Source: Escherichia coli (lineage in GTDB: Bacteria > Pseudomonadota > Gammaproteobacteria > Enterobacterales > Enterobacteriaceae). Taken from it: a stretch of 64,000 nucleotides of DNA. Position 1 is the stretch's first letter. The number at the start of each line of letters is the position of its first letter. This document shows, one piece after another, positions 60,501 through 63,500 of the stretch. The DNA lies in the NCBI RefSeq assembly GCF_017348835.2, contig NZ_CP071375.1, one strand, 5' to 3'. The position numbers were made by a program.

Positions 60501-63500
60501 GTCAGCAACAGCGACATCATCCGGATAAACGCAGTGCCCGTGCGCAGCACGATGACTGGCTGAAGAAAGAGATACAGCGCGTATACGATGAAAATCACCA
60601 GGTATACGGTGTGCGTAAAGTCTGGCGTCAGTTGTTACGGGAAGGTATCAGAGTGGCCAGATGCACTGTGGCACGTCTCATGGCAGTTATGGGACTTGCC
60701 GGTGTTCTCCGGGGTAAAAAGGTCCGCACTACCGTCAGCCGGAAAGCCGTTGCCGCATGCGACCGCGTAAACCGTCAGTTCGTGGCAGAACGTCCAGACC
60801 AGTTGTGGGTGGCTGATTTTACCTGGGTAAGCACATGGCAGGGCTTCGTTTATGTGGCGTTCATCATTGATGTGTTCGCCGGATACATCGTGGGATGGCA
60901 GGTCTCATCATCCATGGAAACAACATTCGTGCTGGATGCACTGGAGCAGGCGTTGTGGGCCCGTCGGCCGTCCGGCACAATCCATCACAGTGATAAAGGT
61001 TCTCAGTATGTATCGCTGGCCTACACGCAGCGGCTTAAGGAAGCCGGATTACTGGCATCAACAGGGAGTACTGGCGACTCGTATGACAACGCGATGGCTG
61101 AGAGCATCAATGGTCTTTACAAAGCGGAGGTAATACACCGTAAGAGCTGGAAAAACCGGACAGAAGTGGAACTGGCCACACTCACGTGGGTGGACTGGTA
61201 TAACAATCGACGATTGCTGGAAAGGCTGGGCCATATTCCTCCGGCAGAAGCAGAAAAAGCTTATTATGCTTCCATCGGAAATAATGATCTGGCAGCCTGA
61301 GTTCACAGATAAAACACTCTCCAGGAAACCCGGGGCGGTTCACCACTGGGATTTTGGCGCAACTTCATGGTGCAGAGGTAAATAGCATCAAGCAAAATCT
61401 CTTTTTCCGTTGTTGTCCTTATGGGACGTCTGTCTTTCTGACCGATTTCATATTGGCGAGGTAATGGGAAGTTAAGTAGAATAGCTGCGGGTGCTTGAGG
61501 CTATCTGCCTCGGGCATGAACACCAACGGCAGATAGAGAAAAGCCCCAGTTAACATTACGCGTCCTGCAAGACGCTTAACATTAATCTGAGGCTCAATCT
61601 ATGAACGGCAAATCTAGGTTAGCCTCTTACGTGCCGAAAGGCAAGGAGATGTATGGGTCCACCACATATTGCAATTTTTATTCTCTTTTAAAATATATTC
61701 CACGGGCGTCATTAGTGCGAGCGCCTTGTGGGGTCTTTTGCTGTTATACAGCACCAGATATTCCGCCAGCTTCTGGTTAAATAGCGCCAGATCTTCAAAG
61801 AGTAAAATCTCATTAAATTCAATAAACTGCTCTCTTAACGTCCGGTTAAAACGTTCACAGATAGCGTTCATTTTTGGCGTGTAGGGATAGGTCCAGAGGT
61901 GTTTGATAGCGGCTTCCTGCAGCGTTTTGTCGAAGTTTCCCAGGAACTCTTTTCCGTTATCTGTGATTATCTGGCTGATACCGACCGGGAACAACCGGGC
62001 TGCGCGGCTGAAGAAGTGATTGACGATATCACTGTTGAGTGACGGCACAGCCAGCGCCAGCGCGTAATTGCTGCATTCGTCGATCATGGTGATGACATAG
62101 CGACGCAGTTCGCCCATTCTGAGCTCAATGGCGTCCATCCCAATGAGCTCACCTGTCTTTACCGGGCGGTAGTGCTTTGGCCTGCGGGGTTTGGCAGACC
62201 GCTTTTTGACAAGCAGTGCCTTCCCCCGCGATCCCAGACGCACAGGTATCATCCGCATTTTATCATGTGCGGCAGCGATCATTCTGCCGATGGTGGAAAC
62301 ACTCGGACAGGCCAGATAGCGCTGTTCGCACCAGGGCTTCAGGCGAACAAAAATCTGCTCTTTACCGAGGTTCGGCAGCTCTGTCCTGAGGCGTCGAATC
62401 TCTTTCAGCACATCGGGATGCCAGTGTTTTTTTCGTCGCACCAGAGGTGCCTTACTGTGCGGGATTAGCCCCTCAGGTCCTTCCTTGTTCAGTAACTGAC
62501 GCCACCAGTAAAGCGTGCGGCAGGACACGCCAAAGGCTTCAGAAGCTGCAGAAATACCGTGTTTATCCCAGAAGTGCAGAGCCTTCATTCTCATTGTTGC
62601 TATATCAGCCATCACTGAAAGCCTCAACGCATAATCGGCCGTTTGGTAGTACTTAGGATAGCCAACCATCAGATGCTGCATTTGCATAGTGCAATCTCCC
62701 CTTACTTATCCGGAGGCAATTGCAATATCTCTGTGAACTTACACAGGAGAAGCAGGCTATGAAGCAGCAAAAGGCGATGTTAATCGCCCTGATCGTCATC
62801 TGTTTAACCGTCATAGTGACGGCACTGGTAACGAGGAAAGACCTCTGCGAGGTACGAGTCCGAACCGGCCAGACGGAGGTCGCTGTCTTCACAGCTTACG
62901 AACCTGAGGAGTAAGAGACCTGGCGGGGGAGAAATCCCTCGCCACCTCTGATGAATCAGGCATCCTCAACGCACCCGCACTTAACCCGCTTCGGCGGGTT
63001 TTGTTTTTTCCTGGCATTCTGGTTTACAATTCGCACGCCAGCCTGAACAACTGGCACCTGCTGCGCCAGCAGAGACAACCGATGGCGCACGATACCAAAT
63101 TATACAATTCTGATGATTCTGCCGTCTTTGCCAGCAGGCGCGGACGGTGTTTTCACGCATTCAAATCTGACTGGTACCAGCATCCCCCATGCACTGAAGA
63201 ACAGGCCGAATGGCTCATTCAGTGTTACCGCAGGCGCGGATGCGAGGTTAAAAAAGCCCTTAGCCTCGACTACCGTCACTGGATAATCTCCGTCAGGCTC
63301 CCTTACTCCGAACGGCCACCGCGTCCGTCCCGCACATTCCAGCAACGGATCTGGAGGTAATGTGCGGGTATTACTTCGACCTGTTCTGGTACCGGAACTC
63401 GGTCTGGTTATCGTTAAGCCAGGCCGTGAATCCATGCGGGTATTTCATGGCGGCAGGGTGCTGGTGGAGTCTGAACCGAAAAGCATGCGTAATCTGCCGT

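Follow-up and report, generated by a model that had tools for sequence, protein, structure and literature searches.

An ISKpn28-like insertion sequence splits a prophage hok/sok locus of Escherichia coli, apparently by targeting the Sok promoter

What becomes of a type I toxin gene when a transposable element comes to lie directly against it? The question is raised by a hok gene found toward the end of a 64,000-nucleotide stretch of Escherichia coli DNA (contig NZ_CP071375.1 of assembly GCF_017348835.2). That whole stretch is here termed the ‘window’, and all positions are counted from its first letter. Immediately upstream of this hok gene is an insertion sequence (IS). A first, sequence-only reading thus suggested that the elements which normally precede hok, i.e., the mok leader, the fold-back region, and the promoter of the antisense antitoxin RNA, Sok, had been either removed or displaced, such that the toxin might be deregulated or instead silent. 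Argued here, and with considerable confidence, is that the locus has been split in two by an IS which targets promoters, with the toxin likely silenced and its antitoxin kept.

The toxin gene is an intact, HokD-type open reading frame (ORF) of 51 amino acids (62759-62914, plus strand), with product MKQQKAMLIALIVICLTVIVTALVTRKDLCEVRVRTGQTEVAVFTAYEPEE. Its assignment to the Hok family, as first proposed, is borne out by a match to Pfam PF01848 (HOK_GEF) of 80.7 bits (cut-off 22, E=5.8e-23) which covers profile positions 1-42 of 42, so that family conservation is present. The narrower NCBIfam Hok models score this protein under their cut-offs (48.4 vs 73). In complete E. coli genomes with identical loci, the PGAP names are ‘hokD’ and ‘IS481 family transposase’. 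The transposase ORF (61614-62687, minus strand) is of 357 amino acids, with helix-turn-helix, rve, and rve_3 domains and a visible D..D(35)E motif (GMDAIEL / ITDNG / ICERFN). Its best family is NCBIfam IS481 (NF033577; 221.5 bits, E=1.6e-65), with IS3 next at 98 bits, and PGAP labels some IS copies as ‘IS481 family transposase’ and others as ‘integrase core domain-containing protein’. Weighing against that family assignment is a score which is 2.5 bits short of the IS481 cut-off of 224. The hok and transposase genes are divergent, on opposite strands, and the 72 bp which had been noted between them is correct as the distance from start codon to start codon (62687 to 62759), made up of the IS end (58 bp), the target duplication (5 bp), and native hok leader (8 bp).

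Where, then, is the regulatory region? An Rfam scan of 59500-64000 places the sok model, RF01794, at 61489-61655 on the plus strand (102 bits, gathering threshold 59, E=3.8e-23). This model spans the hok mRNA from its +1 to the hok AUG, and the match falls across the transposase gene from hok. The regulatory region therefore has not been removed but instead the locus has been split by the IS. Of ‘removed or displaced’, that is, displacement holds and removal does not, the whole of the 5' half being intact at 61453-61649. Deletion in silico of 61650-62750 gives rise to a 600-nt product which many E. coli genomes, those of O121, O157:H7, and O103 among them, match at 600/600. At least 80% of this empty-site sequence is covered by a place in 3,037 of the 5,426 E. 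coli genomes. The empty-site match therefore fixes the IS as being exactly 1,096 bp (61650-62745), with a 5-bp target duplication: the empty site possesses a single GGAGA and the occupied site possesses GGAGA on both sides of the IS. An IS481-like element lying directly upstream of hok, as had been claimed, is thus confirmed and its ends defined. Contiguity was tested as well, with the leader at 61489-61649 contiguous with 62751-63008 in related genomes. The locus in the window is a disrupted member of the hok/sok family, and that it represents a complete prophage hok/sok locus, split in two by an ISKpn28-like IS with every element intact, we consider to be nearly certain.

An insertion could instead have destroyed mok, Sok, and the fold-back elements, leaving an orphan hok as seen with hokD (relF) of strain K-12, and removal is one of the two outcomes that the sequence-only reading had allowed. 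Consistent with that possibility, no regulatory element is found in the 72 bp that part the two start codons, and K-12 hokD is a true orphan, with no hok leader detected within 4.5 kb. A search of 62688-62758 for the translational activator (tac), for the fold-back inhibition element (fbi), and for a Sok promoter also returned none of these, the stretch being made up of IS end plus target duplication. A mok/sok/fold-back region indeed is no longer found between IS and hok, just as the first reading had supposed. The leader, mok start, Sok gene, and Sok promoter nevertheless are all at 61453-61649, there 100% identical to uninterrupted loci, and fbi and terminator still are downstream of hok. 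An orphan hok is refuted by these observations, and we give that explanation next to no credence. The earlier reading had placed the gene pair properly, though it had left out of the locus both the hok left half (61453-61649) and the hok 3' untranslated region (UTR; 62915-63008).

The split locus can be read from left to right as follows. A candidate hok promoter (61453-61482, plus strand), consisting of a -35 of TTGGCG, an 18-nt spacer, and a -10 of TAGAAT, ends 6 nt before the leader start and is the only sigma-70-like site in a scan of 61300-63100. The hok mRNA 5' leader then runs from 61489 to 61649 (plus strand; RF01794 model positions 1-157). Within this intact left half are tac (61489-61500), ucb, the Sok target (sokT), and the Shine-Dalgarno sequence (SD) and start codon of mok. 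What remains of mok, designated here as mok' (61601-61780, plus strand, from the ORF list), is its start codon and 16 native codons followed by IS sequence, together a 59-codon chimeric ORF. With the IS and one copy of the target duplication removed, mok, starting from its ATG at 61601, shares the frame of hok and reads MNGKSRLASYVPKGKEKQAMKQQ....

Sok is predicted to be encoded on the minus strand, at approximately 61536-61609 as judged from the geometry of K-12 sokC. The annotated sokC 5' end falls within mokC, 8 nt in, and precedes the hokC ATG by 49 nt. These distances, when transferred to the window, place the Sok start at about 61609. The putative Sok promoter, as read from the sequence (61616-61644, minus strand), has a -35 of TTGCCT (61644-61639), a 17-nt spacer, and a -10 of TAACCT (61621-61616). 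It is positionally homologous to the SokC promoter (TTGACC-17-CACTCT), which is fixed by the annotated sokC start, and likewise to that found at the same position in a further IS-carrying locus, L137 (TTGCGC-17-TATCCT), the Hok of which begins MKLPRSSLVW and which we take to be of R1 type. The left copy of the target duplication, GGAGA, is at 61645-61649, i.e., at positions -36 to -40 of the Sok promoter, and the right copy, at 62746-62750 (plus strand), is the hok SD, as seen from comparison with the empty site. Prior to its duplication, therefore, a single pentamer was at once the hok SD and the stretch from -36 to -40 of the Sok promoter.

To the right of hok is fbi (CCTCAACGCACCC; 62964-62976, plus strand), identified by its pairing with leader nucleotides 1-12. 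That is, in the minimum free energy fold of the reconstituted 419-nt mRNA, as determined in silico, nucleotides 1-12 (tac) pair with nucleotides 375-387, which are 62964-62976 in the window. An intrinsic terminator of hok mRNA is found at 62983-63008 (plus strand; 7-bp stem, 5 GC pairs, T-run), as identified by a terminator scan. The elements of hok mRNA do not lie on one transcript of about 400 nt, as in the intact locus, since 1,096 bp of IS plus the 5-bp duplication part the leader from SD and ORF. Weak Rfam matches, to isrK (27 bits), ceN48, and sR19, were set aside as below gathering, these overlapping the hok 3' UTR, the leader, or the transposase gene. The isrK match (62923-63004, gathering threshold 50), over hok 3' UTR and terminator, probably reflects only a shape consisting of stem-loop plus terminator.

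What should this splitting do to expression? The left half retains the hok promoter, leader, mok start, and Sok gene along with its core promoter, while the right half retains hok SD, ORF, fbi, and terminator. Probably hok is silent while Sok still is made, at least as can be judged from the arrangement of these parts. Silence would be due to several things: the hok ORF is now 1.1 kb from the hok promoter; mok' translation is predicted to stop at 61780, inside the IS, and mok-hok coupling therefore would be lost; no promoter faces hok, as none passed a sigma-70 scan of the IS for outward-directed promoters; and about 970 nt of RNA, antisense to the transposase gene, would be untranslated following the mok' stop, which should favour Rho-dependent termination. 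In addition, hok has been parted from its local anti-SD.

That last consequence cuts both ways. Of the two GGAGA copies, it is the left one, not that preceding hok, to which the local anti-SD partner (CCUCUU, 61624-61629) now is paired. Both the hok SD and ATG are intact. Hok thus might be made from its duplicated SD without mok, and in part free of Sok, were a transcript from the hok promoter to read through the 1.1-kb IS, i.e., the toxin might still be live. Two further points speak for such activity and against silence: no intrinsic terminator is predicted on the plus strand inside the IS, such that read-through from the hok promoter could occur, and a hypothetical 1,520-nt read-through RNA keeps its tac-fbi pairing, making low-level Hok possible. 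In the read-through fold, however, the hok SD pairs with the IS end, and its probability of being unpaired is 0.24, as compared with 0.17 for the intact full-length mRNA and 0.68 for mRNA without fbi, such that it is sequestered to about the same degree as in the intact mRNA. The same long untranslated RNA, with its invitation to Rho, would further limit read-through. Carriage, too, is stable: the IS-hokD junction is found in 54 of the 5,426 E. coli genomes, and some 1,380 plasmids in which the hok ORF is intact have the ISKpn28-hok equivalent. Such carriage speaks against any appreciable toxicity. A live toxin therefore seems unlikely.

An additional consideration is found within hok itself. 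Codon 47 is a tyrosine TAC in a TACG context near the 3' end of the ORF (62894-62902, within ...GCTTACGAA...). A-to-I editing of hokD mRNA to cysteine has been reported at about this position, with an effect on toxicity (bioRxiv 10.1101/2025.08.07.668861). If that site applies to the allele in the window, then its toxicity would also depend on editing.

Is this insertion then simply an accident of one prophage? The IS is mobile, as there is both an empty site and identical copies of the element at different loci. The element (61650-62745, transposase on the minus strand) runs from TGTATGGG... at 61650 to ...CTTACACA at 62745, with inverted repeats at 61650-61676 and 62718-62745 (TGT...ACA) which have 21 matches over 27/28 nt. 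Duplications of 5 bp accompany it at more than 15 independent sites. Full-length copies of the 1,096 bp are found elsewhere, in many instances at 100% identity, including at ldr/rdl, upstream of yehL and of cvi, and in plasmids and prophages. A one-genome-per-species (GTDB) scan for the IS end gave no match other than one in E. albertii, and the IS is essentially confined to Escherichia, with ISKpn28 its Klebsiella counterpart.

The transposase ORF is peculiar in that its 346 codons within the IS include no stop. The final 11 codons and the stop are supplied instead by the Sok promoter region, the frame passing through the Sok -35 and spacer and ending just past the -10. Transposase gene and Sok have the same direction, and transposase transcripts therefore enter the Sok gene in the sense orientation.

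At hokD the IS is found at the identical position in several diverged alleles, the leaders and flanks of which differ by 4-5%. The element is 100% identical in three such alleles (that of the window, L007, and L008), and a variant diverged by about 2.5% occurs in a leader of the window's type (L009, L010), with divergence of the flanks being independent of that of the IS. This pattern would seem to fit repeated insertion better than it fits one old event.

Strain 2015C-3163, which like 2011C-4315 and RM13322 is a carrier of the IS in hokD, has a second, 100% identical IS copy within its ldr/rdl tandem array (L002; NZ_CP027219.1 5394539-5398634, IS at 1501-2596 therein). The element, with duplication CACAG, there has the same orientation as at hokD. 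It again is 13 nt from the start codon of the toxin, and is 40 nt from the Rdl gene as defined by Rfam, having the Rdl antitoxin promoter (TTGTAA-17-TATTCT) on one side and the SD and ATG of ldr on the other. Thus ldr is a second, unrelated type I toxin that has been disconnected in the same way. Among the targets which annotation or Rfam can name are Sok promoters in hok loci of the hokD, R1-like, and flm/srnB types, the promoter of Rdl, and prophage sequence directly preceding an STnc100 match. Sites just upstream of cvi and of yehL presumably are those genes' own promoters. The STnc100 small RNA match (L081 at 5016-5222, L096 at 14157-14360, and L106) recurrently has the IS just upstream, and is close to phage tRNA genes.

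A target sequence common to the two toxin start regions was considered as a basis for this recurrence and was rejected. The hok and ldr flanks do not align, and across hok subfamilies the distance from IS to ATG ranges from 5 to 13 nt, while that to the antisense -35 is constant. In an flm/srnB-type locus of a Salmonella plasmid, for example, the antisense promoter (TTGACC-18-TACAAT) is closer to the toxin ATG, which leaves the IS at a distance of only 5 nt. The insertion in the window, that is, is a recurrent, position-specific event which is tied to the Sok promoter, a property which the sequence-only reading had overlooked.

How general is this tie to promoters? Flanks were collected from public contigs that were scanned for both IS ends, with all sites coming from natural genomes. 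As read in the orientation of the transposase, the flank consists of IS end, 5-bp duplication, TTGnnn, 16-18 nt, and then TAnnnT. Thus hokD has TCTCC TTGCCT-17-TAACCT, ldr has CTGTG TTGTAA-17-TATTCT, the site L020 has CGCTT TTGACG-17-TATATA, that upstream of cvi (L059) has CACTC TTGACT-17-TATCGT, those upstream of STnc100 (L081/L096) have GAGTA TTGAAA-17-TAAATT, and that upstream of yehL has TTGCAA-17-TATAAT following its duplication. Among 21 non-homologous site families, 12 possess at least 8 of 12 matches to TTGACA-(16-18)-TATAAT at that exact offset (background 0.9%, p ~1e-19). TTG is found at offset 5 in 11 of these families (background 1.5%, p ~3e-15), never at offsets 1-4 or 6-10, and at offset 0 in one family, which is about chance level. 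The same signal, when sought in the opposite IS flank, was seen in 0 of 34.

A blind test made use of 11 copies that were fetched later without known context (one chromosomal and ten plasmid, representing 9 distinct sites), and all 11 fit. The R1-type and flm/srnB-type loci were among them, as were a cvi site and the yehL site. Upon pooling there are 28 distinct sites, 18 of which have TTG exactly 5 nt from the IS end (background 1.5%) and 2 more of which have GTG. Between 19 and 21 of the 28 are promoter-like, with a -10-like hexamer 16-18 nt on and enrichment for G at -14, and the pooled consensus is TSD-TTGaca-N17-TATa.T (TSD, target-site duplication). In 9 of the 28 sites an in-frame TGA, as found in a (T/G)TGA -35 box, ends the transposase at 348 amino acids, and PGAP often flags copies of this kind as ‘incomplete, missing C-terminus’. 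In Klebsiella plasmids the rule is obeyed by ISKpn28 as well, with flanks of CCTCC TTGCAA-17-CATACT and TCTCC TTGCCT-17-TACTCT and a Hok ATG at a distance of 13 nt. It occupies the same relative hok/sok position in Klebsiella IncFIB/FII and IncFIB/HI1B plasmids (L143-L145), and the 244-nt ISKpn28-hok junction is spanned in 1,383 PLSDB plasmids.

Might these associations instead be a product of history, i.e., of a single old insertion that was passed on by descent and recombination, without any preference for target? Lambdoid prophages and IncF plasmids do recombine extensively, and shared ancestry is clear for many copies, such as those of 93% identity which are fixed at yegH-galF and iroB-iss. 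Independent events nonetheless are found beside non-homologous promoters or unrelated genes (Rdl, STnc100, cvi, yehL, and others), several hok subfamilies are hit at a constant distance from the antisense -35, and an identical IS resides in hokD alleles whose flanks are 4-5% apart. Chance is disfavoured as well by the exactness of the offset (p ~1e-15 to 1e-19), by the specific orientation, and by the 11 of 11 prospective copies which fit. A chance hit of this sort we thus regard as extremely improbable.

Alternatively, insertion could be broad, with only those copies which land just upstream of promoters surviving, these being harmless. That every site comes from a natural genome, and so has passed natural selection, is in this explanation's favour and indeed counts against targeting as such, since intergenic positions upstream of promoters plausibly are neutral. 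Also, ISKpn28 can land inside mgrB given selection for that outcome: it has been recovered within the mgrB ORF (+91) under colistin selection (PMC6101004), and target preference is therefore not absolute. Selection for harmlessness, however, would fix neither a one-nucleotide offset from the -35 nor one orientation, and the ending of the transposase frame on the TGA of TTGA in nine sites suggests a long co-adaptation with the target. We consider post-insertion selection to be a rather improbable explanation.

Additional observations do not sit well with targeting. Seven to nine of the 28 sites are not promoter-like, mostly these being degenerate or rearranged copies. Two hokE-adjacent copies, for which flanks are incomplete, disagree with prediction of the K-12 SokE promoter. 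These hokE-type copies (L045 and L011) are 15 nt and 3 nt upstream of hokE-like starts, with left flanks missing or the IS truncated, and L045 does not abut the SokE -35 (TTGCCT-17-TACCAT, as predicted from K-12 annotation, L142). They are exceptions or rearranged copies. With these points and the mgrB insertion taken into account, the target preference still would appear, from the pattern of flanks, to be very probably real.

Targeting by this IS lineage may be envisaged in the following way. Insertion is non-random, with the 5-bp target abutting the -35 hexamer (TTGnnn) of a sigma-70 promoter, and with offset and orientation fixed relative to the -35/-10 pair. The targeted promoter fires away from the transposase-distal IS end, with the transposase co-oriented with that promoter. 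Such targeting could be achieved either by a reading of DNA, i.e., of TTG plus TA about 23 bp apart, or instead by recognition of promoter-bound RNA polymerase. Guidance by RNA polymerase is a tentative suggestion, one that we think has somewhat less than an even chance of being correct, and those targets which are expected to be strong and constitutive (Sok, Rdl) are compatible with RNA polymerase occupancy, as is the STnc100-adjacent position. Insertion just upstream of a -35 usually would leave the core promoter whole.

In hok/sok and ldr/rdl, toxin translation starts in the very stretch that precedes the strong antitoxin promoter. Insertion there may therefore disarm the toxin while sparing the antitoxin, and so be harmless or even beneficial, and tolerated. 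This disconnection of the toxin at no cost would explain the survival and over-representation of copies at hok and ldr. That the ISKpn28-like clade homes to sigma-70 promoters (at -36 to -40, and co-oriented), perhaps via RNA polymerase, and thereby repeatedly disarms hok and ldr toxins in nature, on prophages, on chromosomes, and on more than a thousand Klebsiella plasmids, is a broader proposal that we would give about even chances. Included in that proposal, and sharing its standing, is that the IS may dispense with a stop codon of its own, with the TGA of a TTGA -35 box often supplying one.

What would follow, practically, from a locus so split? The prophage hokD probably is disarmed, with the antitoxin RNA persisting, and ought not to be scored as a working toxin-antitoxin or stabilisation module. 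Protein-based Hok censuses nevertheless score such genes as intact, and about 1% of complete E. coli genomes carry the IS-hokD junction. The ISKpn28 equivalent is carried by about 1,380 PLSDB plasmids, mostly of Klebsiella IncF types, and so post-segregational killing may be overestimated. ISKpn28-interrupted Klebsiella hok/sok modules, that is, are probably non-functional despite Hok annotation. A recent Hok census does not address IS-disrupted loci. The target rule, in turn, offers a mechanism for the gathering of IS elements at hok loci. If true, it would represent a tractable system for study of the recognition of a promoter, or of RNA polymerase, by an rve-type transposase, and possibly a natural tool for promoter-proximal insertion. 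A literature search on IS481 elements at hok loci, on insertion of IS elements at promoters or -35 boxes, and on ISKpn28, which did not cover ISfinder, found no description either of this rule or of the hok association.

Two sets of neighbouring or related features may be mentioned in their own right. The first is a second IS in the window, at 60027-61339, which is IS629-like (IS3 family; 1,313 bp including its duplication) and is 113 bp upstream of the hok promoter. It includes orfA (60087-60413), orfB (60413-61300), and an Rfam ALIL frameshift pseudoknot (120 bits), is absent from the closest genomes, and is common to strain PE164 only. The second consists of right-end remnants of the IS481-type element that are fixed and widespread in E. 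coli contigs, as represented by the L014 group (17 metagenome loci) and the L016 group (11 loci). One such remnant is of 43 nt, beside GGGTGGGCTTACC, and the other is of 670 nt, beside CAGGTGTAATCAATAAGG and annotated as a helix-turn-helix protein. These remnants show a long history of decay for this IS lineage.

How does the locus compare with systems that already are known? Without its IS the locus is like hok/sok (parB) of plasmid R1, that is, with a Hok, an upstream mok, a predicted antisense Sok with its promoter just upstream of the SD, tac-fbi pairing, and a terminator. It differs from R1 in that mok is in frame with hok, as with chromosomal mokC, and in that the locus is that of a lambdoid prophage and is interrupted.

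Comparison may also be made with hokD (relF) of the K-12 Qin prophage. The Hok protein there is all but identical, with a V/I difference being the only one. SD, ORF, fbi, and terminator are shared, and in K-12 too hok has been cut off from its leader. K-12 hokD differs in that the leader is absent and relBE is upstream. Homology of K-12 hokD to the intact locus begins at GGAGAAGCAGG, directly following ...ACA, which is within 3 nt of the IS junction breakpoint. The Qin relE-hokD junction (L006) reads ...TTGACA and then GGAGAAGCAGGCTATG, and so shares with 62743-62761 of the window the IS-terminal ‘ACA’. A search of the K-12 relE-hokD spacer for an IS remnant found only this ‘ACA’ beyond the shared GGAGA, and nothing convincing. 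The K-12 breakpoint could be coincidence or instead could be a scar of IS-mediated rearrangement.

Other hok loci of K-12 have been hit by IS elements. Chromosomal hok loci of that strain were reportedly found by Pedersen and Gerdes in 1999 to be inactivated by IS150 or IS186. There, as in the window, an IS is near to but outside of the hok frame and is presumed to be inactivating. IS186 is about 20 bp downstream of hokC and of hokE in K-12, and its occurrence next to K-12 hok genes has been discussed (PMC3562002). The difference is that IS186 is downstream and disrupts the fbi side, while the IS in the window is of another family, is upstream at the SD, and is recurrent at one nucleotide across hok subfamilies.

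Of described elements the closest is ISKpn28, a member of the IS481 family of about 1,100 bp with repeats ATATTGCAATT and AATTGCAATAT (PMC6101004). Shared with the IS in the window are a length of 1,096 bp, the repeat core, terminal TGT...ACA, a 5-bp duplication, and abutment of the -35 next to Hok genes, while nucleotide identity between the two is 75%. A published element is quoted at 85% identity to ISKpn28, versus the 75% measured here, and it is uncertain whether that element and the IS in the window match.

The target rule also resembles what is seen with landmark-guided elements of the IS1202/ISAjo2 group at dif sites. These are alike in their fixed orientation and short distance from the landmark, and in using a ‘safe’ site rather than the inside of a gene. 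They differ in that the landmark here is not one conserved recombination site but instead a degenerate, genome-wide class, sigma-70 promoters. A eukaryotic parallel is Ty3, with its integrase acting at promoters of RNA polymerase III, and an IS inserting at a fixed offset from the -35 would be, if true, a bacterial counterpart of such promoter-guided retroelement integration. An IS-disrupted hok locus is itself thus of a known kind, and what looks to be new is the target rule, as a variant of site-guided transposition.

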